Assembly (NCBI GenBank): GCA_965216565.1
Contig: OZ244170.1
Location: 384,001 to 448,000, forward strand
Length of the DNA: 64,000 bases
Source of the DNA: Bythopirellula sp.
GTDB taxonomy: Bacteria; Planctomycetota; Planctomycetia; Pirellulales; Lacipirellulaceae
Direction of reading: 5' to 3'
The notes under the pieces were generated by a model, which did no database searches, had not been told where the DNA came from, and was given only the letters and a program-made list of their open reading frames with translations. How positions within the stretch are numbered: position 1 is the first letter of the stretch; the number at the start of each line of letters is the position of its first letter. The position numbers and the translations under genes are program-made. Positions 5,755 through 22,713 of this stretch are shown here, in pieces.

Positions 5755-6930
5755 ATGATGGCAATCTTGTTTCTTGGTGCAGCTTTCGTGGCCTTGGTCG
5801 GCCACGGTTATTTTTGGGTCGCGATTGTTAATCGACTCCATGGTTTAGCTGGTCGTCGAAAACTAATTGATCTGGCAACACTCGCATGCACAGTTTGCTT
5901 TTTAGCCTTCCCGGTGTATGTGCTCGCACATGGCAAGGCAGTCTTCGCTTATTGGAATTCATTCTCGGTTTCCGAATCGTTGTTGGCTGTGCGATATTTT
6001 CAGGCATGTTTGCTGATGAGCCTGGGTGAATTTCTTGTCAAATCGCTATGGCCATCCGAGCGCGATCAATCATCTACCTTGCTTGAAGCAAGCCGCGAGT
6101 CAGTAGACGTCGACAATTCCTCTAGCCTGGATTACTACCGAGGATCGTATGCTCGGTTCCTCGGTGCCATTCCTGGTAATCAATCGACACAGCTGAGCAT
6201 CGACTGTAAACGCGTTATGGTGCCACAGCTTAATCACGCACTCGAGGGGATTCGGATTGTCCACCTGAGCGATTTTCATATGACGGGTCGCCTCGATGTC
6301 GAGTGGTACAAGATCGTTGTCGATCAGGTGACTCAGTTGGAGCCGGATGTTGTAATCATCACGGGGGACATTGTTGAAAATCCTGAGTGTTTTCCGTGGC
6401 TGGAGGAAACCATCGGCCAGCTTAGTGCGGAGTTTGGTGTGTATTTCATTCTCGGAAATCACGACAAATATGTGGATATCGCTCGCACAAAGATGATCCT
6501 GGCCAGTGCGGGCCATGTGTGTGTAAGTGGGCAGTGCTTAGAAACGGCGTGGAACGGTGTCCCTGTGTTTCTCGCAGGCAATGAACGCCCCTGGTTCGAA
6601 AACGTGGGGGCATGGCCTGAAGTTGGGAATCATGAAGCAAGAACAGCTCCCTTGCGCGTTGCCTTGCAGCACACACCCGACCAATGGGAATGGTCACGGA
6701 ATAACGACGTCGACTTAGTCTTTGCGGGGCACACGCACGGAGGCCAGATTTGTTTGCCAATTCTAGGGGCTGTGGCGTGCCCTAGTCTTTACGGAACGCG
6801 ATACGCTGCGGGAGTTTTTCGACGGGGAAACTGCGTGATGCACGTCACCCGAGGATTGTCGGGTCGCACGCCGTTGCGTTGGCTTTGCCCGCCCGAAATT
6901 GCACTGCTGGAGTTGGTTGGGCCGGCTTAG
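5755..6930 (+). CDS. Membrane-anchored metallophosphoesterase (YkuE/YaeI-like)
   Basis: SDFH, TGD, GNHD, HTPD and GHTHGGQ motifs with N-terminal TM helices. Confidence 0.92.
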   Translation: MMAILFLGAAFVALVGHGYFWVAIVNRLHGLAGRRKLIDLATLACTVCFLAFPVYVLAHGKAVFAYWNSFSVSESLLAVRYFQACLLMSLGEFLVKSLWPSERDQSSTLLEASRESVDVDNSSSLDYYRGSYARFLGAIPGNQSTQLSIDCKRVMVPQLNHALEGIRIVHLSDFHMTGRLDVEWYKIVVDQVTQLEPDVVIITGDIVENPECFPWLEETIGQLSAEFGVYFILGNHDKYVDIARTKMILASAGHVCVSGQCLETAWNGVPVFLAGNERPWFENVGAWPEVGNHEARTAPLRVALQHTPDQWEWSRNNDVDLVFAGHTHGGQICLPILGAVACPSLYGTRYAAGVFRRGNCVMHVTRGLSGRTPLRWLCPPEIALLELVGPA

Positions 6931-6957
6931 TGTGATTGCCCAGCTTAGTGTGATTGC
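6925..6957. repeat. 15-bp direct repeat GCTTAGTGTGATTGC x2 (18-bp period)
   Basis: Copies at 6925-6939 and 6943-6957 between convergent genes. Confidence 0.8.
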
Positions 6958-6965
6958 TGAGTCGA

Positions 6966-8150
6966 CTAGCCAGTTAGCACCATAGCACCCTGCGCAGGTG
7001 GTGTTGCGAAGGCGGTCGCCTCGATCCCCGTTTTTTCCTGGTACGCCTTGCTAATTGCCTCGGCGATCGCTTCGGCCTGTTCAGTTTTGACGAGTGAGAC
7101 TGTGCAGCCGCCAAACCCGCCCCCCGTCATTCGCGAGCCAAAGACTCCCTTCTCCAGTCCAAGCTGCTCCGCCAGGGAAACAAGGACATCGAGTTCATCG
7201 CAACTTACCTCGTAATCGTCTCGCAGCGATGCATGGCTCTCGTACATCAGCTGGCCAACCTGCTCCCACTGCCCAGCTTCGCAGGCCGTAGCCGCCTCGG
7301 TGGTCCGCTGGATTTCGCCAATCACGTGCCGCGCTCGGCGGTAGTGCACGTCGTCGATTTTTGCTTTGTTCTCCTCGAGCAGCGACATGGTTGCGTCTCT
7401 CAGAGATTTGACTCCCAGGCTGGCTGCAGCTGCTTCACATTGCTCACGGCGTTCAGCGTACTCGCCACCTGTCAGCTCGTGCTTGACGTTACTATTGATG
7501 ATTAAGATGCTAACGCTCGAGTCGGCTAGCGGGACCATCTGTGGTTCTTGGCTGCGGCAATCGAGTAGCATCAGGTGCCCCGACTGACATAACACAGAAC
7601 TGAATTGATCCATAATGCCACACGGTACGCCAACCTGATGTTCAGCTTGTTGGCTCACCAGGGCCTTCTTAACCGGAGGCATTGACTTGCCGGTGAGTTG
7701 TTCCACAAGTGTCGCGGTGGCAACCTCGAGCGCAGCGCTACTAGAGAGGCCTCCCCCCAGCGGTACAGTTGATTCAATGACGGCATCAAAGGGCAGGGCA
7801 GCGAGACCCTCTGCCCGACAGCCATCGAGCACACAGGCCACATACTGGGCCCATACTGGCAGGCTCGACCGATCCTGACTTTCGAGAGTGATTTCCTGTT
7901 TAGCTTCCACCGTGGAACTGTAGACGCATGCTTCGCCTTCGGCAGCGGAAGTCGGGTCAGCCGCGATCACGGTATATCGATCGATGGCCATTGGCAGCAC
8001 AAAGCCATCGTTGTAGTCAGTATGTTCGCCAATAAGGTTTACCCGCCCCGGCGCTGCGACGACGATTGTTGGCTCTCTTTGGAACTGGTTTCGGAAAGTA
8101 GCGGTCGCTCGCTCCGCCAAATCGGAAAGTGAAACAACTTTGTCCATCAC
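6966..8150 (-). CDS. galK: Galactokinase
   Basis: APGRVNLIGEHTDYN, GLSSSAA, CGIMDQ and GSRMTGGGFGG motifs. Confidence 0.97.
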   Translation of the reverse strand: MMDKVVSLSDLAERATATFRNQFQREPTIVVAAPGRVNLIGEHTDYNDGFVLPMAIDRYTVIAADPTSAAEGEACVYSSTVEAKQEITLESQDRSSLPVWAQYVACVLDGCRAEGLAALPFDAVIESTVPLGGGLSSSAALEVATATLVEQLTGKSMPPVKKALVSQQAEHQVGVPCGIMDQFSSVLCQSGHLMLLDCRSQEPQMVPLADSSVSILIINSNVKHELTGGEYAERREQCEAAAASLGVKSLRDATMSLLEENKAKIDDVHYRRARHVIGEIQRTTEAATACEAGQWEQVGQLMYESHASLRDDYEVSCDELDVLVSLAEQLGLEKGVFGSRMTGGGFGGCTVSLVKTEQAEAIAEAISKAYQEKTGIEATAFATPPAQGAMVLTG

Positions 8151-8218
8151 AGGGCCCTGAATCGATCGATTTACGGTTTAAACAGTCCTCGAAATTTCAA
8201 GTTTGCAGCTTGGCAAGA

Positions 8219-9502
8219 TCACGAAGCGATGTCAACGGCTCGCAAGTTCTTGACGAGTACTAAGGTCATCACTAGAAAACTCGCGATGGCACCGAAAAGC
8301 ATGGACCATGCCGCTCCGGCGACGCCAAACTCGCTGATCAGGGGATAAACAGTAAGTGAGATGGCGATAAAGGTGGCTACTTCGCCCCAAAAATTTGCCT
8401 CGGGTAATTGCAGGGCATTCAAGCCATTGGAACTAGTTAGCGCCAGGCTTGTGACCAAGGTATTAACGCTCAGGATGACTAGGACGCTGTTAGCCCAACT
8501 AAATTCGGGGCCAAAGATTTTCTCCAACAACCAGCTCCCGCCGAGAACAAAGATTACGCAGACGGTACCTAGAACGACCGAATAGATGGCTGCTGAACGA
8601 AATAGTTCTACGTGTAAGCCTTTCTTCCCATACTTGTTAAAGGCCCGGATGGCCCGCGGCTGGAGCAGATTGTTAAGGCCCCGTACGAATACCCAAGAGA
8701 ATCCTGCGAGAGTAACACATACTGCCAACACGCCAGCAGCAGAGCGGTCGATCAATCCGGCAACAATCCAGGGCATAGCCACCTGGCAACCATCTCCTAA
8801 GAGTCTGCCGTAGACTAACCATCGCGAGTATGTCCAATGTTGCTTCCAATGGGCTTGGATGGCGCGGCGATCGAACGTGAATTCAACCTTCGGCTTTCCG
8901 ACAAACCAGCTCAAGGCGCCAAAAGCACAAGCAACACTAATAGCTAGAAAACTGTATGGAATCGTTAACTTTTCAAGCCAAGCCATTGCGAGTAGCAATC
9001 CAACTTGAAGCAAGAACACCAGACCATCAACCACTAGGGCAGTTCGAAGTCTAAAATGGGCAAAACAAACTGTGCGCAAGAATTCCCGAAGCATGTAAGG
9101 GACAATCGCAACGCACAGAGCTAGAACGCTGAATGCCATTGTGCTCGCCCCCTCCGTGGCAAACAGGTAGCCACTGTAGAGACATGCAGCGAGGACCGTC
9201 AGCAGGGCCAGGATCAATTGGTGAACCAAAGTGCTGCCGAGTAGGCTAGCCAGCGCGGCATCTTGACGTTGCGCGGAAAACACCATGTACGGTACCGAGA
9301 GGCCCCTTGCTTGAATCATCGACGCGAACAGCACGAGCGAAAGGCACAGAGAATAGATTCCAACCTCTTCCGGAGTGCATACCCGCGCTAGGATTAGCAT
9401 CGTGAGGAAAGTTGTGGTGCTGGCGATGCCCTGGTCGAAAAGGGCCAGGACTCCCTGTCGGGCACCCTTGGAATCTACGACTTTTCTTACCTTTTGAACC
9501 AT
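8219..9502 (-). CDS. Wzx-like polysaccharide flippase
   Basis: Many TM segments; LARVCTPEEVGIY at the N-terminus and FGVAGAAW near the C-terminus. Confidence 0.8.
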   Translation of the reverse strand: MVQKVRKVVDSKGARQGVLALFDQGIASTTTFLTMLILARVCTPEEVGIYSLCLSLVLFASMIQARGLSVPYMVFSAQRQDAALASLLGSTLVHQLILALLTVLAACLYSGYLFATEGASTMAFSVLALCVAIVPYMLREFLRTVCFAHFRLRTALVVDGLVFLLQVGLLLAMAWLEKLTIPYSFLAISVACAFGALSWFVGKPKVEFTFDRRAIQAHWKQHWTYSRWLVYGRLLGDGCQVAMPWIVAGLIDRSAAGVLAVCVTLAGFSWVFVRGLNNLLQPRAIRAFNKYGKKGLHVELFRSAAIYSVVLGTVCVIFVLGGSWLLEKIFGPEFSWANSVLVILSVNTLVTSLALTSSNGLNALQLPEANFWGEVATFIAISLTVYPLISEFGVAGAAWSMLFGAIASFLVMTLVLVKNLRAVDIAS

Positions 9503-9759
9503 CGTGTTCTGTTCTCAGAGAGTTCGCTGGCTGGGGGGCGAATTCTCCGCGTGCTTCATGTCTGCACGTAGTGCTGCGCTATCTGCCCGGGAATAGCACC
9601 ACTCGAGAGGGGATCGGCTGACCACGATCTTACAACCAATGGAAGGCAGTGAGTCGTCTGCGCCTGATTGGCAATTGGGATTGGATTTCGGTTGTCCTCG
9701 ACACTGGTTCCGGTAATTGCCGCGAATCCCTTAATTCACAGTCTCAAAGTCGATTTTCC

Positions 9760-9788
9760 TTGACAATAAGAAAATGCCGGTTCATTAT
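9760..9788 (+). promoter_or_regulatory. Putative sigma70 promoter for the first secreted paralogue
   Basis: TTGACA-17nt-CATTAT. Confidence 0.5.
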
Positions 9789-9940
9789 ACACAAGTTAAG
9801 AGGATTGCACGGTTTATGCAGTCTGAAATGAATTGGACGATTCTGAGCCTTCCTGGCTCATAGTCAGCGTTTCAGTGAGTGTCCCCTACAGGACGGGGTG
9901 CTCTCATTCTCATGCCTTTCTTTTTTGGGGAGACTCCACG

Positions 9941-10366
9941 ATGAAGATGATGATGATTTTGCCAGCTTTGGCAATGATGTGCCTCGTGAGCTCGGCTCAA
10001 GCCGACAACGGTGCGATCGACAGTGCTACGCTTAGCGCCATGGGCCTAAGCAACGTTCAAGTGATGTCCGATGTAGAAGCTCAAGACGTACGCGGCATGG
10101 GCTATGCCCCACCTCGTAGAAGCTTGGCACTCGCATTTGGCGTCTCGTTCGCCAGCATCAATGCAGGTCCTGCCAGTGCCGGTACTTTGGACGGTTTCTT
10201 GTCCTATGGCAACCACGTTGCTAAGGGTCAGCATGAATCCGTAGCCCAGATCTCGGAAACCAAGACCAAAACTAAGACGATTCTTGGCGTACCTGCGTAC
10301 TCCATCACAAAGACTCGTACCTTGACAATTGGCGCTGGTGGTAGCTCCAGCTCGTTTGCTTTTTAA
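9941..10366 (+). CDS. Secreted protein, putative substrate of the Fap-like system (paralogue 1)
   Basis: RBS GGGGAG and ATG 9941; signal peptide ending AQA; MGLSNVQVMSDVEAQDVRG leader; beta-rich mature part. Confidence 0.85.
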   Translation: MKMMMILPALAMMCLVSSAQADNGAIDSATLSAMGLSNVQVMSDVEAQDVRGMGYAPPRRSLALAFGVSFASINAGPASAGTLDGFLSYGNHVAKGQHESVAQISETKTKTKTILGVPAYSITKTRTLTIGAGGSSSSFAF

Positions 10367-10412
10367 GCATGAAAGTGTGAGTTCCCAGGCATTTTCGATG
10401 CCTGACAATTTT

Positions 10413-10453
10413 AAGCGTCTCGACGTTTCCTGGTACGTCGAGACGCTTTTTTT
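10413..10453 (+). terminator. Rho-independent terminator
   Basis: AAGCGTCTCGACGT / ACGTCGAGACGCTT stem followed by a T run. Confidence 0.9.
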
Positions 10454-10940
10454 GTCTGTCGATCTAATCTGCCTCTGCTAGTTTAAAGCGAATCCCTAGG
10501 GGCTCTGAAGTCTGCTTCTCCATCAGAAGGTTTCCTTTATCCAGGGGATATTCGTTTTCTTTAGGGGCTGTGGCCCCGATTGGTTGAGGATTCGCCTCAA
10601 TCTCATAGCTCGCAAAGCGTCCATTGGCCGAAAAATATCCCCGCAAGATTGGTCTGGCGTGGCCAGTTTTGGTACTGCCTGTAACGGTTGTATGGGGAAT
10701 GGTAACGATTGTACGGCCTCTGCGAATTGTTCTTCTCTCGGACCTTGGAACCTAGGCAAATTTCCGAACTCCATTGTTGATGCACTGGGGGTCCCGATTA
10801 GCGTGAGATAGAGAGGGCAGCGACGGGCAACTCAACTTTACCCGGGAAGTTGACCAACCCGTCAAAAACCTCCAACTACTTTTCGGACTACTTAAAAGTC
10901 CACCATCTCACCTCTGTATTCTTACCAGGAGTACCACACG

Positions 10941-11408
10941 ATGACGAAGCTTTTTGTAACTTTGCCTGCTCTGGCTTTGGTTGTTGCCCTTTCCAGTAGC
11001 GCTGTTGCCGACAACGGCATTAACGATGCAACTCTTGCTGACATGGGCCTAGCCGGTGTTGAGCTGATGAACGATGCCGAAGCTATGGAAATCCGTGGCT
11101 TAGGCTACAACGGTGGCCATCAAATGCCACAACCCTCCGGACACGAGAAGCCATGGTCGCTGGCTTTCGGTGTTTCTTACGCTGGAGTTGAAGGTGGCGA
11201 CAGCCACAGTGGCGCTGGTGCCGGAACGCTTGATGGCTTTATTGCCGAAGGCAAGTTCATGGCCTCTGGCGAGCACTACTCGGAAGCTGGCTTGACCAAG
11301 GTTGAGTCGCACGAGCTGCAAGTGAAGGGTCAACCTGCGACTTTGGAAATCAAGACCAAGTCGATCAAGGTCTTCGCTGGTGGTTTCGCAACCGCTTCGA
11401 GCCTCTAA
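10941..11408 (+). CDS. Secreted protein, putative substrate of the Fap-like system (paralogue 2)
   Basis: RBS AGGAG; signal peptide ending AVA; MGLAGVELMNDAEAMEIRG; shares LAFGVS and AGTLDGF with 9941..10366. Confidence 0.9.
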   Translation: MTKLFVTLPALALVVALSSSAVADNGINDATLADMGLAGVELMNDAEAMEIRGLGYNGGHQMPQPSGHEKPWSLAFGVSYAGVEGGDSHSGAGAGTLDGFIAEGKFMASGEHYSEAGLTKVESHELQVKGQPATLEIKTKSIKVFAGGFATASSL

Positions 11409-11466
11409 GGAATAGATCACAGGCAAGTGCCTGATAAATGGTGATCAGGATGATCGCAAAAAAATA

Positions 11467-11503
11467 AAAGCGTCCTGTCGCAATGCGGCAGGACGCTTTT
11501 TTT
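11467..11503 (+). terminator. Rho-independent terminator, probably bidirectional
   Basis: AAAAGCGTCCTG...CAGGACGCTTTT stem with a T run; A run upstream. Confidence 0.85.
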
Positions 11504-11518
11504 CGTGGACCCCAGATA

Positions 11519-11566
11519 AAAAACCCACGGAAGGCCAGAGTTTGGCGGGGGAGGCCTCCCGTGGGT
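11519..11566 (-). terminator. Terminator of the minus-strand barrel gene
   Basis: ACCCACGGAAGGCC...GGCCTCCCGTGGGT stem preceded by an A run on the + strand. Confidence 0.65.
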
Positions 11567-11575
11567 GCGCTAGGT

Positions 11576-13147
11576 TCACCAAGTGAAGCCCGTGGCAACA
11601 GACACACCATACAGGTCGACAATCAGTCCAGGGGCATCTGCCGTTGTACTCACAACGTAGTCGTTCGTATCTCCCCCATCTGTGGTTTGTACTCCGGCAA
11701 AAGAGCCAGAAGCTGCTCCGCCGCTCGAGGCATCCCAATACTGGTATTCGAAGGCAGTCCGGAAGAATGCCTTGGCTGGCAGACAGCGTAGAGCAAAGTC
11801 CCACTGAATACCCGCCTGGAATTCGCCAATAAACAGATCGTCATTGACGCTGGTTCGGGCACCATCGATCGAACCTGCCGATCCACCTGGAACTGATCCA
11901 TCGGTAGGAATGACCGTTACCCCAGCACTTGTTTGGACTTCGCTGTGGTTACAGCCCCACAAAACAGACGAGCGGGCACTGTAGAACCAATGGGCACAAG
12001 AGCAAGGAAACAGTGGTTTGCGACCGTTCAGCCCGAACGTAAGTCCTGTACCATGGGCGCTACGATTTGCTCGGGTGGTTCCTTCGAGGATACCGTCCGT
12101 GGTATCGGTGCGGACGAACGAGCGACCGTAGATCGATTCGTGATGTTCAATCAAAGCATAACGTGCACCGAACGACAGTTGGTTTTTGCAGCCATGCAGG
12201 CAGAAGTTTCGGGTGACTTCCAGGTCAGCATAGTAGGCTTCAAATATGCTGTTTGCATTATAATCGTTGTCGGGATAGAGTTCCCATGGCTGGAGCGAAT
12301 CGAAATCATTCTCTCCTGCTCGCAAGTGGAAATAGCGACCAACGATGCCCCATTTGCAACCTTGAACACCGAGCCAAATTCGTGGAGCGACATAAAAGTC
12401 GTTTAGGTCGGCGTGATCCCAATAGGGACCGAATTGCTGGAGTCCAGTCCGCGTGCCATTTACGAGTTGTTCGAATTCATACGTGACACGTCTGCCATTA
12501 ATATCAGGCGACAAGAAGACTGCCTCAGTTCCTGCAACGATGGTGCAAGGCCGTTTGCAGCAGCGTTGACATGCACAGCCGCCTCCACAACAAGAGTCGC
12601 AAAAACCCTGCGCACAAGCATCGCAGCAACCGGTGGCTCCGCAGTAAAGCGGGTCCTGCCAGGTCGGTTCAGCTCCGCTATCATCCGGGGTTGGACCCAC
12701 GCTAGAGATAGCAGGTTCTTCTGCAGGTAGATCGTAGATCTCCTCGTTGGCTTGGGCACGGATGACTCGCGACGTCCCGATGTTGCCCACCGCAGAAATA
12801 TCATTTCGATAGGCGGATGCCGCTGGTCGGGGAGCGACCGGCGTAGAATGGGTCACACTTGTAACCAGAGGTCGCTGCTGTGGTTTTTCATCCGTCGCAA
12901 CAAAGTTGCCTTTGTCGTCCTGCTCCGTGAGCCAACGGACTGTCGTTGTTTGGGTATCTCCGCTGTTGCGAGTCGACTTGGATTCGAGGGATGCTTGCAT
13001 CCGTTCGAGCTGTGCCGCTTTTTCAGCTAGTTCTGCGGCCAGTTGCGATAGGTCGCCAGTCGATTGACCAGCTGCCCACAAGACGTTGCACCAAGAGGTG
13101 CCGACCATTGCCAAACAAATGGCAGTGATACTAAGTAGCTTCTTCAT
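11576..13147 (-). CDS. Outer-membrane beta-barrel protein (BBP7/Lpg1974-like) with Cys-rich linker
   Basis: Start reassigned to MKKLL; signal peptide, coiled coil, CCxxC cluster, amphipathic strands, YQYW and C-terminal GFTW. Confidence 0.8.
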   Translation of the reverse strand: MKKLLSITAICLAMVGTSWCNVLWAAGQSTGDLSQLAAELAEKAAQLERMQASLESKSTRNSGDTQTTTVRWLTEQDDKGNFVATDEKPQQRPLVTSVTHSTPVAPRPAASAYRNDISAVGNIGTSRVIRAQANEEIYDLPAEEPAISSVGPTPDDSGAEPTWQDPLYCGATGCCDACAQGFCDSCCGGGCACQRCCKRPCTIVAGTEAVFLSPDINGRRVTYEFEQLVNGTRTGLQQFGPYWDHADLNDFYVAPRIWLGVQGCKWGIVGRYFHLRAGENDFDSLQPWELYPDNDYNANSIFEAYYADLEVTRNFCLHGCKNQLSFGARYALIEHHESIYGRSFVRTDTTDGILEGTTRANRSAHGTGLTFGLNGRKPLFPCSCAHWFYSARSSVLWGCNHSEVQTSAGVTVIPTDGSVPGGSAGSIDGARTSVNDDLFIGEFQAGIQWDFALRCLPAKAFFRTAFEYQYWDASSGGAASGSFAGVQTTDGGDTNDYVVSTTADAPGLIVDLYGVSVATGFTW

Positions 13148-13760
13148 CTTAAGATTCCCCCCTGCCGCTGTACCGACAACGCTCGCGAATGCTAAGCGGT
13201 GTACCAACGACAAATTGCCAAAAAGTTCTTAACTGGGTCGAAAAGTTTGAGTCCCTGCTTCTTGCCCGAGATGCCTCAAAGAGATTCGCGAGCAAAAGGC
13301 AAACTTAGTACTCCGCATTCGTTGATCCATAAAAGGAATGCGACTGGCACTAGTCGGGTAACCGCCAATGGTGGACTAATGCAGAGAACAGGATCGACAG
13401 TCAAAACCGATTCGATCGAAGAATTTAGTACCCACTGATACAACCGGTAGAATCGTTAAACTCAACCATGTGTCTCAACGTGCGGAAATAGCGGTATTCG
13501 CGGGGTGGCAGCGCATTCGTGAGTCTTCAGGTGATAGCTCCGATAGCACTTTCTTAGACCGATCTTCCAGTATCCAGGCAGTGATTCTCAAGAGTATGCC
13601 TTAGTTAAGACGATGAATCGCTACAACCGGCATAACACGCAAAGTTTGCCAAATCGTGTCCCGCGGCGGTTGCTGGCCACATTTCGTACTGAATTATCAA
13701 CTAGCGCTGTGCGAAGCACGTTCCAACATGGCCAATACAACAGAGACCAATCGAACGAGC

Positions 13761-15830
13761 ATGAAATTGCAAGTGAGCTCAATAATGAAGCTCGCGTTGA
13801 CACTTTCAATTACGCTCGTGAGTTTCCAAAAGACCGAAGCGGTCGAGAAAAACTCACAAAGCTGGTTTCGCCCATTTGCCTGGCAAGAAAGTCCTGAACC
13901 CGGTCAGGGGTCCGGTATCGAAGCACCTCCGGTAGCCAGGAATCTGAACATTTTTAAATGGTCGAACGATGTCCAGCCGCAAGCTCAGCAGCCATCATCG
14001 GATACAACGCGGACTCAAGGCACACGTCTGCCGACGGTGCAGCAGCCCAGCACAAAACTATTGGCCGGTCTTCCATCTGGTCCGAGCATCCCTGCTGATT
14101 TAGATGCTGAATCGCCAGTGATTGCCACAGATAGCCTGCAACAACCTGGCTCCGTAGCGGTTACTGCTTCGCAGCAGTTCGCCACCATTGCTGAGCCTCA
14201 AGGTTCAGCGTCGAGTGTGTCGGATAACGTGCGTCAAACGGCCGCTTATGGGCAGCAGCCGGTGAATTGGCCTGCAGAGAATGAGCAATCCAATCAGGCA
14301 GCAAATTCATCCGGAAACAACAATCCATTTTCATGGACAAACTCAGGACCTGCAGTGCCTCAAAGTGTGGCACCTCCACAAACGGCTCCCATCATGGAGC
14401 GTAGCCGCCAGCCTTGGGAGTGGTCCAACAATCCTACGGTGCGAGAGAAGCCACAAGAGATTATGCCACCCGATGAACCCTCATTGGGTTCAGCATTGCA
14501 TAATGCCCTAAGCTGGTCTGACCAACCGAATCCAACACCACCAACGGCTGCCGAAAGTGGGCGGCCTCCGGAAGATGCAACCGACGCAGAATTGGTTGAA
14601 TGGGAAAAGCAAAAATATCCTTGGATCCGCCCCTTTTACTGGGCAAATAGCAACCCAGAACTTGGGGTAGAAAACGAAATCGCACCGCGTGACCCCACTC
14701 AAGTAGAAGGTTATGTACCGCTCCTGGCAAAACCGTTCAATTGGGACAATCGCCAGGTGAGCCAGCAGCCTAGGCCGCTCGCAGAAACGCCAAATGGGTT
14801 AACCAGCTATCCTACAACACAGGCTGCCGCATACTTTCAAGACGAGGAATCGCTACCGAATCCACTTGAAGAGCTCAAAATCCCTAGAGACGACGAGGCA
14901 GATCGTAATCAGACAGCGGGCACTGCTAAGGACAATGAGCTCGATGGCGAAAAGAAGGGCACGCTGGCCGAAGCAGAATCGCTTGGTGAAGCACCAGAAG
15001 ATAACAGCTTACAATTCCTCAGGGCCGATACGGTGCTGCTGAAGCCTGGAGACTTTCAGTTCGACTACGGCTTCGCCTATACCAAGTTTGATCGAACAAC
15101 GCCTGTCATTGTGGCTACTGATGCGGGTAACGTGGTCGAACATGCAGAGTTGCGACTGCGTGAACTTCGGGTTCCATTCGAAATTCGCTATGGTCTAGCC
15201 AGACGCGTCCAACTATTCCTGAACGTGCCCTTTGGATGGGTCAATTCAGAATTCAGCTTCCCCGGGTTCGACGAGTTCGAGAACGATGGCGGCATCGGCG
15301 ACATAGTCTTTGGTGGATCGTTTTTGCTAAGAGAAAACGATCCTTGCAACAAGCCTGACGCAATTCTTACGTTCGCTGCAGTGGCACCGACCGGGAATGA
15401 TCCTTTTCCCGCCGTAGGCGCATCGACTGCTGCTCCTTCGCTAGGCAATGGTTTTTGGTCGCTTGCTTCCAATTTGTTGTTCATTAAGAACTACGATCCG
15501 GTCGTGCTGTTCTACGGAGCGGGTACTCGCCAGAACTTCGATACAGAGTTCAACGGACAAGAGTTCCGTGCGGGTGGAGAATACAACTATCAATTTGGCG
15601 TTGGCTTCGGCGTTAACAGCAAAGTCACGTTTAGCACGCGCTTCAACGGTGCCTATGTAACGGAGTCGAGACTCGACGGTCAACGGATCCAAGGTTCAAT
15701 ACAGGAGCCGATGACCCTGGGTCTTGCCATGACCATTGCTAAGAACAAGAAGCTTATCGAGCCGTTCGTCGATTTTGGGCTCACCGACGATGCATCTGAC
15801 GCAAGATTTGGCATTACCTGGACGCGATAG
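13761..15830 (+). CDS. FapF-like outer-membrane transporter with long N-terminal extension
   Basis: C-terminal barrel with GIGD, APTGNDPF, LGNGFWS and KNYDPVVLF, resembling FapF/SphA-family motifs; start uncertain (13656-13785). Confidence 0.8.
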   Translation: MKLQVSSIMKLALTLSITLVSFQKTEAVEKNSQSWFRPFAWQESPEPGQGSGIEAPPVARNLNIFKWSNDVQPQAQQPSSDTTRTQGTRLPTVQQPSTKLLAGLPSGPSIPADLDAESPVIATDSLQQPGSVAVTASQQFATIAEPQGSASSVSDNVRQTAAYGQQPVNWPAENEQSNQAANSSGNNNPFSWTNSGPAVPQSVAPPQTAPIMERSRQPWEWSNNPTVREKPQEIMPPDEPSLGSALHNALSWSDQPNPTPPTAAESGRPPEDATDAELVEWEKQKYPWIRPFYWANSNPELGVENEIAPRDPTQVEGYVPLLAKPFNWDNRQVSQQPRPLAETPNGLTSYPTTQAAAYFQDEESLPNPLEELKIPRDDEADRNQTAGTAKDNELDGEKKGTLAEAESLGEAPEDNSLQFLRADTVLLKPGDFQFDYGFAYTKFDRTTPVIVATDAGNVVEHAELRLRELRVPFEIRYGLARRVQLFLNVPFGWVNSEFSFPGFDEFENDGGIGDIVFGGSFLLRENDPCNKPDAILTFAAVAPTGNDPFPAVGASTAAPSLGNGFWSLASNLLFIKNYDPVVLFYGAGTRQNFDTEFNGQEFRAGGEYNYQFGVGFGVNSKVTFSTRFNGAYVTESRLDGQRIQGSIQEPMTLGLAMTIAKNKKLIEPFVDFGLTDDASDARFGITWTR

Positions 15831-15867
15831 GCTTTCCGAGGCTCCGCTGCTTTGCGGAGGGTGAAAC

Positions 15868-16638
15868 ATGAACGTCAAAATATCTAGTTGCTGTTTACTC
15901 GTGGTCATAGCATTGGGTGCGGCTGCGCCCTGTCACACCTATGCGGAGGGCGATCGTCAGGAGCCCCCTAAAAAGAGCCAGCAAAAGAAACGCGAGCGTC
16001 CGGGCCCACCAGTTCGAGACCGCGAGCATACTTTTGCTAAACGTGTGCGAAACTACCGGGAGCTCAAACGCCAGAACATTGTTATGCAGCAGCGAGATTA
16101 CTCTTGCGGTGCGGCAGCATTGGCCACGATTGCCCACTACTATTGGCGGGACAACGTCGATGAGGAGTTCTTTCTGTCTATACTAGATCACATTCTAACC
16201 CTAGAAGAAGCTAAAGAGCGGGTCGAAAATGGCTTGGCGATGAGCGACCTGCGCCGTGCTGCCGTCGAGGCAGGCTACAAGGCTATTGTGGGTAAGGTTT
16301 CTTTTCAAAAACTCACCGAGTCGAAAGTGCCATTAATCGTGGGCATCACTGTCGACGACTACGATCACTTTGTCGTGTATCGCGGTACTGACGGCATCTA
16401 TGTTTATTTGGCTGATCCAATTCGCGGGAATCTTCGCGTTCGCAGCCATGTGTTCATCAAACAGTGGCAAAAGAATGCAATCTTGGCGATTGCTAAGCCG
16501 GGTGCCAAAGTGAAGGAATATTCCCGTCTGAGCATCACAGGCGACGAGCTATTCCTGGGTCGGCTCAATGATCAGGTTGTGCGGACGGCAGGCGAACGAC
16601 CGATCACGCGTCCCATCTATCGCCCCATCGTACGCTGA
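15868..16638 (+). CDS. FapD-like C39 cysteine peptidase
   Basis: QQRDYSCGAAALATI (Cys), HFVV (His), LADP..GN (Asp); signal peptide. Confidence 0.92.
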   Translation: MNVKISSCCLLVVIALGAAAPCHTYAEGDRQEPPKKSQQKKRERPGPPVRDREHTFAKRVRNYRELKRQNIVMQQRDYSCGAAALATIAHYYWRDNVDEEFFLSILDHILTLEEAKERVENGLAMSDLRRAAVEAGYKAIVGKVSFQKLTESKVPLIVGITVDDYDHFVVYRGTDGIYVYLADPIRGNLRVRSHVFIKQWQKNAILAIAKPGAKVKEYSRLSITGDELFLGRLNDQVVRTAGERPITRPIYRPIVR

Positions 16639-16655
16639 TCGGCGTGGCGTTAGGG

Positions 16656-16868
16656 CTATTCTGATTCGTCTGAGAGTGCTTCCTGGATGATCGACGCGAT
16701 GTCGAACTTGCCACTATTGATAGAATCGAAGACCGATTCGTGCATCGTCTGCGCGTCGTAGTCTTCCAGCTTTGCCAAGATCTTTCTGATCGCTACTGGG
16801 GAGTGGCCTTGCTCGCGCAACCATTCCATCAGTTCTTCATGATTCGGGTCTGGAGTAGACATGGGCAT
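16656..16868 (-). CDS. Small acidic hypothetical protein
   Basis: 70-aa ORF directly downstream of tsaB with protein-like composition. Confidence 0.7.
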   Translation of the reverse strand: MPMSTPDPNHEELMEWLREQGHSPVAIRKILAKLEDYDAQTMHESVFDSINSGKFDIASIIQEALSDESE

Positions 16869-16892
16869 TCATCCGTCAGAGTAAAGTTTGGA

Positions 16893-17600
16893 TTAGGCAA
16901 TCGCATCTGCTTTTTCTTCAGCTGCACTTTTGCGAAAGTAATTGGGCACGAGTTGCATGGGATCGATACCGCCTTGGCTGAGGAAAATCTTTGCTCCAAG
17001 TTTACCGATCGCTCTGGCAGTGGGCGACCATAGTTCGGACTCGGCAATTGTGACGCCACTGGGAATACGATCGGCAAGAGTATTCAGCGGCGGCCCTGTG
17101 ACTAGGTCACCGGGTTGAAGCAAGTCGAGCCACTCGTCGATTTTCAACAAAAGCGTATCTGGCGGAGTGACCATCTCAGACTCGCTTAGGAAAGTATAAC
17201 TGGCAGCAAACAGCTCTTGCCGTTGTGCGTCTAGTATTGCCCACACGCGTTGACTCTTTTTGTGCTCACCCGAGTCCGCAATCTTCATTGCGAGTGCGGA
17301 GAGGCTATGTACACCTACCAATTTCGCAGCGCTGGAATAGGCCAGAGTTTTTGCGGTGATGACACCAATCCTCAATCCAGTGAATGAACCTGGACCCGTG
17401 GCAACGCAGAGAAGATCTACGTTTTCGATGTCCCAGCTGCATTTCTTCAGTAGCGAGGAAATCTGCGGGACGAGGGAACACGCAGTTCGTTCATTTTTCG
17501 GTAACGAGACTTCTTGAACAAGCTCGCAGCAATCTTGCCGGACTGTCAGCGTAGCCAGGCTTCCCCGACGGTCGATGGATTCAATAGCAAGTATCCGCAT
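16893..17600 (-). CDS. tsaB: tRNA t6A biosynthesis protein TsaB
   Basis: MRILAIES, GPGSFTGLRIG, DAQRQE and PNYFRKSAAE motifs. Confidence 0.95.
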   Translation of the reverse strand: MRILAIESIDRRGSLATLTVRQDCCELVQEVSLPKNERTACSLVPQISSLLKKCSWDIENVDLLCVATGPGSFTGLRIGVITAKTLAYSSAAKLVGVHSLSALAMKIADSGEHKKSQRVWAILDAQRQELFAASYTFLSESEMVTPPDTLLLKIDEWLDLLQPGDLVTGPPLNTLADRIPSGVTIAESELWSPTARAIGKLGAKIFLSQGGIDPMQLVPNYFRKSAAEEKADAIA

Positions 17601-17971
17601 GGCAACTTTTTAGTAGATCTGGATCAGCATAGACCAAGTAATTGGGGACGCTTCGTCCGAGTTGAGTCCTGAGTTGCGGGTTTAGCCCGATCGTCCTGCC
17701 GGGCCTCCATTCTCGCTCGTAGAGATGGAATCCGCCACCATTCTCGAACACATTCTTGGCTTGGGCGATCGTAGCAGGAGCAGGGAGGTGCATTCTAACG
17801 AATCGCTGGGCGGATAGAGCGTCCTTGACCGGTCTCTTTTCGGGATTTAGACTAGCCAGTTGGATCGTACAGTCGAGGCCTCTTATTGCTTTTAGGGGTA
17901 ATCGAATTGAGCCCCGTCTCTAAGTCACGATCGCATAACTACAGCCCTTTCAGCGACTGGTTTTTGTTGCA

Positions 17972-18724
17972 GTGCGTCGAGCGATAATTAGTGACATTCA
18001 CGGTAATCATGTAGCCCTCGAGAGCGTGCTTGCGCACATTGCGGACCAAAAGGTCGATGAAGTCTACTGCTTGGGTGACATCATCGGCTATGGACCCAGT
18101 CCGTGCGAATGTCTCGATGCGGTGATCGACAACGCCAAAGTGTGCCTACTGGGCAATCATGACCAGGGTGCAATGTTCGATCCCGAAGGATTCAATAGTG
18201 GTGCTGAACGCGCCATTTTTTGGACTCGCGAACAACTGGAAAACAGTGGTGGTAGCCCAGATAAAATTGATCGCCGCTGGGATTTTCTGGGAACCTTGCC
18301 GCGTGTTCATCGAGAAGACCCTTGGCTGTATGTTCATGGATCACCGCGTAACCCGGTCAACGAGTATGTCTTTCCGGAAGACATTTACAATCAAAAGAAA
18401 ATGGAAAAGCTTTTTGGGTTGATTACCAAGGGCTGTTTCCAAGGGCACACTCATGTGCCGGGCGTGTTTCTTGAGAGCTTGGAATTTATCACACCCGAGC
18501 AGACTCAAAATGTTTTTGAGATCAAAGACGAGCGGTTCATGGTGAATGTGGGTTCCGTAGGCCAGCCTCGGGATGGAGATCCTCGTTCTTGCTATGTCGT
18601 GCAGGAAGACGACAAGATTACGTTCCATCGCGTGGAGTACGATGTGGATGTAACGGCAAATAAAATCTACCAGACTCCCGATCTGGATAATTTCTTAGGA
18701 GACCGTATCAAGGAAGGACGCTAG
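17972..18724 (+). CDS. Metallophosphoesterase family protein
   Basis: [26 protein letters not shown] and [12 protein letters not shown] motifs. Confidence 0.95.
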
Positions 18725-18885
18725 CCGATAGCGTGAGTCGCCTCCTGTGATGCAGTTGGCGGCTGGGGTCTCAGACAATCTGCCAATTCTACTGGTAGCC
18801 TCAACCCACCCCCCTCCCAGATTGTTGCTCTACCAGTGTAAAATATTTCTTTCTTTCCTCAGTCTTTTTTGCGAGAGCGTCCCAC

Positions 18886-21312
18886 GTGGAACAACGACGA
18901 GTCATCCTATTTTTAATGCTCTCGTTCACGGTATTGGTGCTCAATGGCCTGCTGTTCCCGCCTGAAGAAGTTGCGGACAACAAACTCCCTCCTAAGGGAA
19001 AGCAAGAAGCAGCGGCAGTCGCTGAGGGCGGTGCGGAAGCGGACGCCAGCGGCGAACATTTCGACCAAGGGGCCGATGCTCCAGGTGCTCTGGATGGCCA
19101 GGATCCCAACGAGCAGCCCGTTGAGCCAGTTGCTGAGGTCCCGCTCGAATTTGCGACCCTAGGATCTATCGCCGAAGACTCGTCTTATCGGATGCTGGTA
19201 ACACTGACCAACAAAGGGGCGGGTGTCCAACGTGTGGAACTTGCCAACCGTCGGTACCGAGATCTGCAGGATCGAGGGGGTTACCTGGGGCACTTGCAAC
19301 TAGTAAAGGCCGCGGAGGGCGGACTCCTAGTTCAGGTGGTCGGCGAGGGAACTCCCGCTGCGAATGCAGGAATCAAAAAGGGCGACCGACTGCTCTCTGC
19401 CAAAGCGGGCAAGACTTCAGCTGAGCTCAACTCGCCCAAGGATTTCACGAATCTTTTGGAAGAGCTCGAACCGGGGCGAGAGATCATCCTCAGAGTTGCT
19501 CGAGAAGATGGTCAAGATGAAGAAATCGAATTGGAATTGGTGCGTCGTCCGCTGGAAGTCATTCGTCCCGAGGCTGAGAACTTCCTGATGCGTACCGGGT
19601 CGATTCCTGCTGATTTGGAATCGCCTCCCTCTCTACTTTTTTCCCTCGAGCAACTGGGATCGCAGAAACTCACTGCCGAGATCGAAAAGGCGAAAGGTCG
19701 TGCCCAACAAGCGATTGAAGAACAAACGGGCGAACAAGTTTCCGTTCCCAAAGAACTTGCAGGGGTCGCGCTGAGCGAGTCAAACTGGGAAATCGTTGAG
19801 CAGGACGAAACAAGTGTCACTTTCCGCCAACGAGTGCCGCAGCATAACCTTGAAGTCATCAAGCGCTATCGGATTGCCACGATTGCGAACGAAGAACAGA
19901 GCGAAGCAGATTTTCCTGCCTACCATCTCACACTTGACATCGAAATCCGTAACGGTGGCGACAAGCCAATCAACAATCTTGCCTACCGTCTTGATGGCCC
20001 GAACGGACTTCCTCTGGAAGGTTGGTGGTATGCTCATAAAGTGGGACGTGAATGGACGGTAGGTCTCCGCGACATCTTTGCCCGACATGTAGGTGAGGAT
20101 GACCCCGTTCAGTTTGGGCCTCAGGCAGTGATCGATGGCGACTTCGAGCCCATGATGGGTACTCCTCTCGCATACATCGGCATCGATGCACAGTACTTCT
20201 CGGCAATGCTAATTCCCGAGAAACCATCGCTCGACACAACCTGGATTGATCAGGCACTAGCCACACTCTTGAGCCCTCAACCCAAAGCTCGCGGTACTGA
20301 AGGTCGCTACGCGAATGTTTCGTTCCGTTTGATAAGCAAAGAATTGACTCTCGAGCCGGGCGAGACACTCAAGCATTCCTATAAGCTCTTTGCCGGTCCC
20401 AAACGTCCTGAGCTACTTAAGAAGTATCAGGTTGTCGACGATCCTGCCTATTCGCTTGGCGACTTGGAGTATTACGGATGGTTCTCCAGCGTTTCTACAG
20501 GCATGCTCGCTATCCTGCATTTCTTCTATGGGATTGTTGGCAACTATGGCATAGCCATTATCATGCTCACGGTGCTGGTGCGTCTCTGCCTTTTTCCCAT
20601 CAGCCGCAAGCAAGCCAAGAGCATGGCTGCGATGCAAGCGCTGCGTCCTGAAATGGACAAGTTGAAGGAAAAGTACAAGAACGACATGCAGAAGCAGTCG
20701 TCTGAAATGCAGGCGCTGTACCGCAAGCACAACATCAATCCGCTGGGCGGCTGCCTGCCGATGTTTATCCAACTGCCCATAATGCTGGGGCTTTATAGGG
20801 CACTCGCGGTAGATCTGGAATTGCGACAAGCTCCGTTGATTAGCGAAAGCGTGCGATGGTGCTCCAATTTGGGTGCTCCCGATATGCTATTCGACTGGTC
20901 CGGGTTCATGCCCGAATTTATTACTAGTGGCCAAGGGTTTTTAGGATTAGGCCCTTACTTCAATATTCTGCCGATCGTCACCATCTTCCTGTTTATTTTG
21001 CAGCAAAAGCTCTTTATGCCTGAAGCAGCCAACGAGCAGGCTGCTTTGCAACAAAAGATCATGCAATACATGATGATTTTCATGGGCCTGATGTTCTTCA
21101 AGGTGGCATCGGGGTTGTGCATTTACTTTATTGCTTCCAGTATTTGGGGCATTGCAGAAAGAAAGCTCATTCCGCCACCAAAGGTGGCTGAAGGCAGTGG
21201 AAGCTCGAACGACAATGGCAATGGATTCAAGTCGAGTTCAGCTCGGTCATCCTCCGACAAGAAATCGAACTCCAAGAACAAAGGCAAGCGGAAGCCAAAG
21301 AAGAAGCGTTAA
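18886..21312 (+). CDS. yidC: Membrane protein insertase YidC with PDZ-like insert
   Basis: GNYGIAIIMLT, NPLGGCLPMFIQLPI and TM core; PDZ-like GTPAANAGIKKGDRL. Confidence 0.95.
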   Translation: MEQRRVILFLMLSFTVLVLNGLLFPPEEVADNKLPPKGKQEAAAVAEGGAEADASGEHFDQGADAPGALDGQDPNEQPVEPVAEVPLEFATLGSIAEDSSYRMLVTLTNKGAGVQRVELANRRYRDLQDRGGYLGHLQLVKAAEGGLLVQVVGEGTPAANAGIKKGDRLLSAKAGKTSAELNSPKDFTNLLEELEPGREIILRVAREDGQDEEIELELVRRPLEVIRPEAENFLMRTGSIPADLESPPSLLFSLEQLGSQKLTAEIEKAKGRAQQAIEEQTGEQVSVPKELAGVALSESNWEIVEQDETSVTFRQRVPQHNLEVIKRYRIATIANEEQSEADFPAYHLTLDIEIRNGGDKPINNLAYRLDGPNGLPLEGWWYAHKVGREWTVGLRDIFARHVGEDDPVQFGPQAVIDGDFEPMMGTPLAYIGIDAQYFSAMLIPEKPSLDTTWIDQALATLLSPQPKARGTEGRYANVSFRLISKELTLEPGETLKHSYKLFAGPKRPELLKKYQVVDDPAYSLGDLEYYGWFSSVSTGMLAILHFFYGIVGNYGIAIIMLTVLVRLCLFPISRKQAKSMAAMQALRPEMDKLKEKYKNDMQKQSSEMQALYRKHNINPLGGCLPMFIQLPIMLGLYRALAVDLELRQAPLISESVRWCSNLGAPDMLFDWSGFMPEFITSGQGFLGLGPYFNILPIVTIFLFILQQKLFMPEAANEQAALQQKIMQYMMIFMGLMFFKVASGLCIYFIASSIWGIAERKLIPPPKVAEGSGSSNDNGNGFKSSSARSSSDKKSNSKNKGKRKPKKKR

Positions 21313-21348
21313 CCTTGGTGATCGGCTTGACTCCGAGATCGCTCCGCG

Positions 21349-22713
21349 ATGGTGCTGGACCCTCACGATACAATCGTTGCCATTGGCACGCCGCCACGAC
21401 CTGCCGGTCGTGGAATCGTGCGCCTGAGTGGCCCTCGTGTGGTCGATTGTCTTTCTCGCAGCTTCGTTCCTGATGATTTCGATTGCGATTGGCAGTCGCT
21501 GCAGAGTGCCCGATGTCTGTCCGGTAAGATACTCTTGCAACAAGACATTCCCTGTAACCTACTTCTTTGGCCCACTGCCAAAAGTTACACGCGGCAACCA
21601 ACAGCCGAGATCAACACATTCGGGGCGATGCCGATTCTGGAAAAGATAGTCAAGCATCTGTGCGAGCAGGGGGCGCGACTAGCTGAGCCAGGCGAATTCA
21701 CTCTCCGCGCGTTTCTGGCCGGACGACTCGATTTGACCCAAGCCGAGGGAGTGCTAGGAGTGATCGATGCCCGCGCACCTGCGGAGCTTAACGCATCGCT
21801 CGAACAGCTTGCCGGAGGGCTTTCGCATCCGCTCCAAGTCACACGGCAGCAGCTGATCGAACTGCTTGCCGAACTGGAAGCTGGGCTCGATTTTGTGGAA
21901 GAAGATATCGAGTTCATATCCGTGGAGCAATTGTGCTCAAACTTGAAAGCTGCGCAAATATCGGTTCAGGAGACTCGCGTACAACTTTCCTCTCGGGCAA
22001 CCTCAATGGAGCTGCCGTGTGTTGCGGTCGTTGGACCTCCCAACGCTGGTAAGAGTAGTTTGTTCAATGAACTTCGCAGGAAATGGGGGGCAGATGTCGG
22101 CCAAGCCGAGGCGATTGTATCTCAGCAGGCTGGTACCACTCGTGATTATGTTACCGCTGAGCTAGAAATAAATGGAATTGGTTGCCTGTTGGTCGATACC
22201 GCTGGAGAGGACACTACAACCCAAGAAGCTTCGATTGATCGGATTGCCCAGGCGATGACAGGACGTCAGAAAGAAACAGCCTCTTTGCTTGTTTACTGTC
22301 GAGAGCTAACTAGTGCAGCCGATCACGAATGCCTTGATATCAAGACTGAGGCTTTGCCTGTCTGGACTAAAAGCGATCAGGTAGACGCTTCCGGAATCGA
22401 CGAGCTCACTTGTAGTGCTGTGACAGGTGAAGGTCTCGATCGATTGGCTACCGAGATCCAAACGCGGTTGGAGAGTTTGCTCGAAGAACGTGGGAGCATT
22501 ATCGGCTCGACGACCTTGCGATGCGGCGACAGTCTCGAAAATGCCGACAAAGCGTTATCAGAAGCGCTATTGCAGGCCGAACAGGCGGGCGGAGAAGAAT
22601 TGGTGGCCGCCGAGGTTCGTCTGGCACTGACAGAGATTGGCCGCGTAGTTGGTACGGTCTATACCGACGATATTCTGGATCAAATCTTTGGCCAATTCTG
22701 CATTGGCAAGTAG
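21349..22713 (+). CDS. mnmE: tRNA modification GTPase MnmE
   Basis: AEPGEFTLRAFLAG, GPPNAGKSS, GTTRD, DTAG and terminal FCIGK; follows yidC. Confidence 0.95.
   Translation: MVLDPHDTIVAIGTPPRPAGRGIVRLSGPRVVDCLSRSFVPDDFDCDWQSLQSARCLSGKILLQQDIPCNLLLWPTAKSYTRQPTAEINTFGAMPILEKIVKHLCEQGARLAEPGEFTLRAFLAGRLDLTQAEGVLGVIDARAPAELNASLEQLAGGLSHPLQVTRQQLIELLAELEAGLDFVEEDIEFISVEQLCSNLKAAQISVQETRVQLSSRATSMELPCVAVVGPPNAGKSSLFNELRRKWGADVGQAEAIVSQQAGTTRDYVTAELEINGIGCLLVDTAGEDTTTQEASIDRIAQAMTGRQKETASLLVYCRELTSAADHECLDIKTEALPVWTKSDQVDASGIDELTCSAVTGEGLDRLATEIQTRLESLLEERGSIIGSTTLRCGDSLENADKALSEALLQAEQAGGEELVAAEVRLALTEIGRVVGTVYTDDILDQIFGQFCIGK

Follow-up and report, generated by a model that had tools for sequence, protein, structure and literature searches.

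Two described systems come close to the locus reported here, the Fap system of Pseudomonas (fapABCDEF; PMC5557850, PMC6173800, PMC12459412) and the Fil system of Acinetobacter. According to the available text of PMC5557850, secretion by FapF depends on its coiled coil, the N terminus of FapE is removed in vivo and FapD must be active for secretion. The target of FapD is given there as unproven, and cleavage of FapF is put forward as an alternative; a 2026 preprint (10.64898/2026.10.01.755530), in its accessible part, says of FapD only that it takes part in the processing of precursors. Both FapB and FapC are described as three-layer beta-solenoids in the available text of PMC12459412. Pairs of fapD and fapF without Fap subunits are known in five more phyla (Rouse et al. 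2018, PMC6173800) and Fil-type pili have been called a rare type III pilus (PMC3203104), both as stated in the accessible portions of these papers. Here we describe a locus at positions 9941 to 16638 of a 64,000-nucleotide stretch of Bythopirellula sp. (assembly GCA_965216565.1, contig OZ244170.1, positions 384,001 to 448,000, forward strand; the window in the following). It comprises two small secreted cargo proteins (A and B), a second barrel besides the pore, a FapF-like pore and a stand-alone secreted C39 peptidase. We read it, with a probability of about 0.6, as a secretion line of the Fap type whose cargo is a new fibre subunit and builds a surface fibre.

Comparison with Fap and Fil

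The pore gene (13761..15830, plus strand; about 689 amino acids, start uncertain, reading frame open from 13656) encodes a signal peptide, a Pro/Gln/Ser-rich region of about 400 residues, a plug-like helix and a barrel (14976-15827). It matches the FapF crystal structures 5o65, 5o67 and 5o68 (E 3e-16 to 2e-15, the best over 257 residues) and scores 63 bits against the FapF equivalog model NF058560 (cut-off 700). The plug-like helix and the first PTG are kept. A coiled coil was not found: the crude heptad score is 0.79 (0-1.2 in 21 homologues) versus 1.5-1.7 in three FapF-type controls. The disordered N-terminal region (13761-14975) carries six PFxW[ST]N-like motifs, 2-6 of which occur in 14 of 21 homologues and which could hold cargo or peptidase. 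One pore clade with a longer N terminus lacks them.

The peptidase gene (15868..16638, plus strand; 256 amino acids; Gln74, Cys80, His167, Asp183) follows the pore gene on the same strand after 37 nucleotides. Its product matches PF03412 (69.5 bits, cut-off 22) and the FapD model NF058616 (92 bits, cut-off 330). The catalytic residues were read from an alignment to 6mpz and from 22 loci; by eye, Cys, His and Asp are kept in all 22 loci listed, in one of which the gene is split by a frameshift. Thus the original prediction, a model's reading of the letters of this DNA, was right in placing a FapF-like barrel next to a FapD-like C39 peptidase. The peptidase is split into two frames in L048 and the pore is split in L087, perhaps by assembly error or decay, and two loci (L094, L099) have two tandem C39 genes each.

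The module shares with Fap, as described in the accessible parts of the papers cited above, the homologous pore, the adjacent secreted stand-alone C39 peptidase with an intact triad, a small beta-type cargo exported through Sec and a FapE-like leader spacing. Unlike in Fap, the cargo has no Asn/Gln repeats, every cargo protein carries the leader, and antiparallel hairpins are predicted instead of a three-layer beta-solenoid. The module also differs in its pore, which has PFxW repeats and no coiled coil, in its extra 10-stranded barrel and in its split, partly divergent transcription units. Ordinary FapB, FapC or FapE proteins, which the prediction had named as a way in which it could fail, were not found: the NCBIfam models (FapE: NF058559) gave no match to A or B, while they find the Aeromonas subunits used as positive controls (E 1e-20, 1e-50 and 2e-12, respectively). 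These models are also not among the 25 listed of 29 families matched by 89 cargo family members (E<=1). The predicted lack of Asn/Gln-rich repeats holds as well. Asn plus Gln amount to 6.6% in A and 6.0% in B after residue 21, and to 5% on average in the 89 members, none of which has NQQ or GN.GN.

With Fil (NCBIfam FilA-FilD; locus L078) the module shares a non-Fap cargo with the same leader spacing, a C39 peptidase (FilB), a FapF-like pore without coiled coil (FilC) and a second outer-membrane barrel. In contrast to Fil, the cargo is unrelated to FilA (281 amino acids): the FilA model NF050077 gave no match to it (control FilA E 3e-98). The FilD model NF050080 did not match the second barrel, which is modelled with 10 strands and is OpcA/Legionella-porin-like rather than FadL-type as FilD, and the module scores far below the Fil model cut-offs. 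Hence the module stands outside Fap by its subunits and coiled coil, and outside Fil by FilA and FilD. No fifth conserved gene was seen in the fetched loci, where the FapA regulator was looked for without a positive control. Neither the cargo family nor its predicted architecture nor the linked 10-stranded barrel was found described in the literature searched, a search that left most subscription literature outside.

Co-inheritance of the four gene families

In 101 genomes of the family Lacipirellulaceae, the cargo profile matched 19. A peptidase orthologue (E<1e-30) and the second barrel (E<1e-55) were present in the same 19, and the pore in 18; the one genome without it is 66% complete. In 17 of the 19, the genes are found within about 7 kb on a single contig, and the other two assemblies are broken there. 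Outside these genomes, weaker barrel paralogues occur in 25 further members of the family, 12 fetched loci of which showed no cargo, pore or peptidase. Weak peptidase matches in 7 further genomes (E 4e-9 to 1e-6, frames of 381-818 amino acids) are probably domains of ATP-binding cassette (ABC) transporters. Presence is patchy inside genera (6 of 16 genomes in the genus of the window), yet always joint.

The same was seen across the order Pirellulales. In a sample of 201 genomes, cargo or leader, peptidase and pore were each found in 39, and 38 genomes are common to all three, which leaves 161 with none of them and only two with a part (one with a cargo fragment at a contig end, one with a distant peptidase-pore pair). 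The module occurs in 11 of 30 families of the order. From the order matches, twenty loci of other families were chosen so as to have large contigs and to be spread over the families. All four gene families are present in 18, with the gene order varying between loci, and the other two are of a distant peptidase-pore type without second barrel. Cargo, peptidase and pore gave no match in 300 genomes sampled from the remainder of the phylum, with queries that can overlook distant pairs. The four gene families form one inherited module. The prediction had allowed for the small proteins not occurring together with fapDF homologues; instead, both co-occurrence and linkage were found.

The more distant peptidase-pore type was seen in three loci (L052:8122-10675, L095 and L100). 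In L052 and L095 the pair adjoins a gene for a small protein of another cargo family, which bears a leader and has strands of alternating Val and Lys. A cargo gene with 74% identity was also found in one record titled with a gammaproteobacterial genus (L001), whereas all others were seen in planctomycetes; the record may be mislabelled or mis-binned.

A C39-type leader behind the signal peptide

Gene A (9941..10366, plus strand) encodes 141 amino acids, with a signal peptide (1-21), a leader (22-53) and a predicted mature four-strand domain of 88 residues. Gene B (10941..11408, plus strand) encodes 155, with a signal peptide (1-23), a leader (24-54) and a predicted mature domain of 101 residues. 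The signal peptides of all five proteins were assigned by eye. That A and B are secreted paralogues rich in Gly, Ser, Ala and Thr had been predicted and agrees with our data (41% identity over 147 residues, E 7e-33; 47% of these residues in A and 42% in B after residue 21). The leader behind the signal peptide had been overlooked.

This leader of about 31 residues has the pattern LxxMGL...MSDxxAxx[IV]RG-x-G-[YFW], which was found in 249 of 263 homologues; several of the misses are fragments. It spans 10004..10099 in A, ending in MSDVEAQDVRG-M, and 11010..11102 in B, ending in MNDAEAMEIRG-L with a modelled helix at residues 45-52 (both plus strand; spacing compared with the available text of PMC6363468). 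When the x of RG-x is numbered -1, the conserved columns of 89 aligned sequences are Met/Val/Leu/Ile -12, Asp -10, Ala/Gly -7 (Ala in 70, Gly in 17), Val/Ile -4, Arg -3 and Gly -2, the last three being invariant. The commonest residues at -1 are Met, Lys, Leu and Phe. AlphaFold2 (AF2) places a helix on -10 to -3, and conservation falls directly after R-G-x-G-[YFW].

According to the accessible part of PMC6363468, the element bound by LahT is a helix spanning -4 to -11, and residues -4, -7 and -12 are hydrophobic. The leader agrees with C39 double-glycine processing as described there for LahT and PCAT1 in the hydrophobic -4 and -12 on a short helix, in Gly -2 and in the catalytic Cys-His-Asp of the enzyme. 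The canonical Leu -7 and Gly/Ala/Ser -1 are not found; the module leader has Ala -7, Arg -3 and a bulky -1. Moreover, the module peptidase works in the periplasm instead of being part of an ABC transporter, and the leader stands behind a Sec signal. Since the leader is non-canonical at -7 and -1, the cut site is a guess; by analogy, the cut is most likely to fall after R-G-x, freeing G-[YFW].

A hidden Markov model (HMM) of the leader found exactly four proteins among 53,677 frames of the source genome (E<=1e-13; next 0.53), which has one such peptidase: A, B, an orphan paralogue (G000:C1:3889865-3890338, a full cargo with a Gly-rich insert) and a protein in which the leader precedes an unrelated His/Lys-rich tail (1751692-1752036 on the same contig). 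On the loci, the leader HMM matched neither pore nor barrel nor peptidase. Judged from these sequences, the leader is a portable tag. A tandem pair of genes with leader and His/Lys-rich tail was seen in locus L005, and in genome G026 a distant peptidase-pore pair has its own small gene bearing a similar tag. The leader spacing recurs in an Aeromonas FapE-like protein, in Acinetobacter FilA and in three small genes of Cupriavidus/Polymorphobacter Fap-like loci, and is absent from the other 5 of the 10 proteins tested; the spacing pattern was written after these sequences had been inspected. The planctomycete leader HMM gives the FapE-like leaders no score, and only the spacing is common.

The mature cargo domain

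The four strands of the mature domain have the consensus b1 AxGxS[FY]A, b2 AGSxNG[YF]xA, b3 AxGxNxSxAG and b4 VxAGGxSxAxA-end, and the chain ends exactly 7 residues past the last GG in 228 of 268 sequences (26 without match, 14 with other lengths). One strand face is small and conserved (the inner face, of Ala, Gly, Ser and Asn), the other variable and often charged. Because of the charges on the variable face, an oligomeric membrane barrel of the trimeric-autotransporter kind was rejected for the cargo. Between b3 and b4 lies an insert of 5-184 residues, either a Thr/Lys hairpin or a Gly-rich stretch. In the AF2 model of B (predicted local distance difference test, pLDDT, 64; predicted template modelling score, pTM, 0.41) the four strands reach a pLDDT of about 70. 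Together with the coupling analysis, they are placed at residues 72-83, 92-103, 107-126 and 134-153.

For the coupling analysis, 204 of 268 sequences with all four strands were used and 13 near-invariant columns dropped. It gave antiparallel registers of 175 for b1-b2, 210 for b2-b3 and 262 for b3-b4. The b1-b4 register was 227 in 33 of 60 half-samples and 225 in the other 27. As 227 = 175-210+262, b1 and b4 meet at the same height. For the pairs b1-b2 and b3-b4, coupling is seen on the outer face (z up to 4.9 and up to 5.7, respectively), whereas b2-b3 and b1-b4 covary on the inner conserved face only (outer z<=1.1). In a tree-aware test, S73-S154 had 7 joint changes versus 2.4 expected (p 0.003) and D98-H112 7 versus 1.0. 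A flat monomer cannot bring b1 to b4; hence, either b4 would pair with b1 of the next subunit or the two hairpins would pack face to face, the latter fitting the face pattern better. Both arrangements would leave free edges and imply polymerisation. We favour the hairpins b1-b2 and b3-b4 packed face to face, whose four free edges would suit stacking.

The cargo has no Pfam, NCBIfam or PDB-sequence family match, and its look-alikes in the Atlas are planctomycete clusters without names. A fold search (VIA-align, 48,161 chains) returned nothing at Z>=5, a result that shows neither a new nor a different fold. The best matches were flat meanders (Z 3.2), and because of these weak matches the cargo model may be flat.

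The second barrel

The second barrel gene (11576..13147, minus strand) encodes 523 amino acids: a signal peptide, a low-complexity region with a short coiled-coil-like stretch, a Cys cluster and, in the last 323 residues (11579-12547), the barrel. The Cys cluster (about 12545-12740, minus strand) has 12 Cys in 65 residues just before the barrel, where homologues have 2-16. AF2 gives a 10-stranded barrel (pLDDT 96, pTM 0.89) with later strands 24-32 residues long. The fold matches Legionella Dot/Icm porin I (9nh1; Z 22.2, root mean square deviation 3.3, 243 residues aligned), OpcA (2vdf, Z 20.0) and OmpT (7xw0, Z 16.1). No Pfam match was obtained in 15 members of the family; language-model look-alikes at 0.96 are PF05150, which we take as a lead. 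The barrel shares its long 10-stranded fold with Legionella MOMP/Lpg1974 (PF05150), BBP7, porin I and OpcA, and differs from them in lacking a Pfam match, in its module-linked clade and in strand tips that resemble the cargo. A link of such barrels to Fap-type export was not found in the literature searched.

The last four barrel strands run out, in, out, in, as do b1-b4 of the cargo. In 18 of 21 linked barrels, the b2 profile scores best at a site 98-104 residues before the C terminus; p<=0.05 is reached at this site in about half. With register and strand order fixed on the window, the mean barrel-cargo score was -14.8 for 19 barrels of the family, -32.8 for 17 held-out barrels of other families and -56.2 for 11 unlinked paralogues. 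In the 17 held-out barrels, the window register was the best of 9 shifts and the in-order assignment the best of 24 orders, which was seen in linked barrels only. Barrel and cargo of the same locus were more alike than mismatched ones (p 0.012, 30 loci; membrane-strand control p 0.68). This likeness is incomplete, and it was first noticed post hoc. As the extracellular tips of its last four strands resemble the cargo strands in part, the barrel is a candidate anchor or seed; we put the chance that it anchors the fibre at about one in three.

An unlinked clade of the second-barrel family (L056, L058-L062, L064, L065) has very conserved, different extracellular tips, and no partner genes were seen beside it. 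A homologue of the second barrel is present in the cultured species Bythopirellula polymerisocia. The source genome holds a second divergent barrel-pore pair (G000:C1:3003564-3007672), 64% and 44% identical to that of the window; L068 has the same arrangement.

Gene layout, codon use and surroundings

A and B are followed on the plus strand by the second barrel on the minus strand and then, again on the plus strand, by pore and peptidase. B and the barrel converge on one hairpin, and barrel and pore diverge. The barrel had been predicted beside the other genes; more precisely, it sits between cargo and pore on the opposite strand, and for this reason the module comprises about four transcription units rather than one operon. 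That A and B are separately terminated was borne out. An intrinsic terminator hairpin 3' of A (10413..10448, plus strand) has 14 pairs and a T run (z -6.2). The bidirectional terminator between B and the barrel (11466..11503, both strands, stem 11470-11496; z -5.2 on the plus and -4.7 on the minus strand), with an A run before and a T run after its stem, was missing from our first terminator scan. A terminator-like hairpin of its own was seen at 37 of 45 cargo genes, counted without a shuffle control. The top-scoring sigma-70-like promoter candidate upstream of A (TTGACA-17-CATTAT, 9760..9788, plus strand, 10 of 12) is weak, with 6 promoter-like sites observed versus 7.9 expected.

As a proxy for abundance, codon bias was ranked among 3,648 predicted genes with 15 clustered basic genes, which we take to be ribosomal proteins, as the reference. 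The cargo genes lie at the top (A 99.0, B 99.2 and the orphan cargo paralogue 99.6 percentile), and the machinery lower (second barrel 63, pore 52, peptidase 83). Corrected for composition, z is 2.5 for A and 2.7 for B (cargo range 2.5-3.3), and 3.2 for the barrel copy of the second pair in the genome. Among the most codon-biased non-ribosomal genes is one for a 456-residue signal-peptide protein with a Cys-rich start (G000:C1:3400953-3402320), perhaps a major outer-membrane protein.

The GC content is close to that of the genome (52.4% versus 53.6%), a single contig of 5.2 Mb, and does not indicate a recent transfer of the module. Among the relatives of the window's proteins, those with names belong to Planctomycetota, Lacipirellulaceae and Pirellulales. 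The module is flanked by a polysaccharide flippase gene, preceded by metallophosphoesterase and galactokinase genes (5755-9502), and by a TsaD-family gene, followed by a metallophosphoesterase and further genes (16893-22713), which presumably resemble yidC and mnmE. The flippase and the right flank are common to the window and locus L002. A functional link with the flippase was rejected, as it adjoins the module in only 2 of the loci listed. An Rfam search of window positions 8000-18000 gave no match. Of the sequencing runs listed, 8 entries from 3 studies contain this DNA, and none of the entries with it is RNA.

Proposed mechanism and alternatives

In the mechanism that we propose, A and B would enter the periplasm via their signal peptides. 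There, the second leader would be recognised and probably cleaved by the C39 peptidase, and the remaining chains of 88-101 residues would reach the outside through the FapF-like pore. Each chain would then form two beta-hairpins, and edge-to-edge stacking of the subunits would build a surface fibre, decorated by the variable b3-b4 insert (5-184 residues). More tentatively, the second barrel may anchor or seed the fibre. As the hairpins would pack face to face through Ala, Gly and Ser, the stability of the subunit would need the stacking. Cleavage and export through the pore are suggested by analogy with Fap and C39 biochemistry. A polymer subunit is suggested since the beta-only mature domain, the codon bias in the top 1% and the edge-exposing covariation would suit one. 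The original prediction had the machinery export a different fibre or surface subunit, possibly of a planctomycete appendage: the linked, non-Fap, beta-only cargo has stood, and the fibre and the appendage are what we infer from it. Doubtful as yet is a more specific version, in which protease-activated two-hairpin subunits with a silk-like Ala/Gly/Ser core and a loop of up to about 180 residues form an antiparallel two-layer cross-beta filament, a new class of surface fibre, seeded and tethered by a 10-stranded barrel whose strand tips copy one subunit.

Several observations weigh against the secretion line with a surface fibre. Fibre, cleavage and export are predictions from the genes. The pore lacks the coiled coil that FapF requires, and the leader departs from the canonical form, having Ala/Gly at -7 and a bulky -1 residue. 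The cargo was modelled with middling confidence (pLDDT 64, pTM 0.41), and the weak flat-meander matches leave the sandwich unconfirmed. The tree-aware test has low power, as the true hairpin pairs V78-L97 and L74-I101 also fail among the 27 pairs tested; in an earlier, uncalibrated tree metric, since replaced, S73-S154 ranked 324 of 707. As to the barrel, the barrel-cargo totals are negative, b2 alone scoring clearly and b1 not at all. A whole-profile comparison of cargo and barrel found nothing (probability 1.3%), 8 of the 11 control barrels belong to a single clade, and the locus-matched excess falls to p 0.07 on 11 thinned loci, the 30 loci being related. Related genomes are likewise not independent in the co-inheritance counts, and the second barrel-pore pair of the source genome has no cargo or peptidase beside it.

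The cargo could also be processed and exported, and then form only a short surface complex, in which few subunits complete a sheet on the second barrel as a variable adhesin or receptor cap. This would account for the co-inheritance of the barrel, for its fold, which is that of the adhesin OpcA (Z 20), and for its partial likeness to the cargo strands, and the hypervariable insert suits surface display. It is nevertheless unlikely, because the separate terminators, the multiplied cargo genes (up to 5 in L084) and the higher codon bias of the cargo (99th versus 63rd percentile for the barrel) point to a large excess of cargo over barrel. A little less likely still, the cargo could be released as a bioactive peptide that acts like a microcin or bacteriocin or serves as a signal. 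Microcin- and bacteriocin-like peptides typically have C39 leaders and bodies rich in Gly, Ala and Ser, and some pore-formers build barrels from four strands per protomer. The C39-type leader, the leader-only paralogues with His/Lys-rich tails and weak fold matches to pore-forming hairpins (Z<=3.1, no better than chance) fit such a peptide. However, neither strand face is of a lipid-contacting kind (Ala/Gly/Ser/Asn on one, frequent charges on the other), no further conserved gene for immunity was seen among the loci listed, and a Sec signal with an outer-membrane pore is not the bacteriocin route.

We also consider it improbable, slightly more so than a released peptide, that the leader is a chaperone or gating tag only, or that the peptidase cuts the pore, so that the cargo would be periplasmic or uncut. 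The unproven target of FapD and the proposed cleavage of FapF (available text of PMC5557850) leave room for this, as does the non-canonical residue -1. On the other hand, the catalytic Cys, His and Asp are kept in all 22 loci listed, the leader HMM has no match to pore, barrel or peptidase in the loci, and conservation falls right behind the proposed cut. Finally, pore and peptidase match Fap and Fil models, as they would in an ordinary diverged Fap or Fil locus. Yet the matches lie far below the cut-offs, and FapB/C/E and FilA/FilD models found nothing while their positive controls worked; the joint presence of cargo, peptidase and pore in 38 of the 40 order genomes with any part, and of none in 161, speaks in the same way against a chance neighbourhood. 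Both are highly improbable.

Implications

The substrate of FapD is open. Here, one peptidase per genome faces a few proteins that share one tag, among them one that shares the tag only, and therefore the cut is directly testable. In addition, a cargo and a fourth component can now be named for the fapD/fapF pairs in roughly one in five of the sampled Pirellulales genomes. Should the fibre prove real, the module would provide a genetic handle on planctomycete surface fibres. It would then also represent a cross-beta architecture unlike the solenoids of Fap or curli, with a membrane barrel as nucleator, and offer a scaffold of 90 residues in which large inserts are naturally accommodated.

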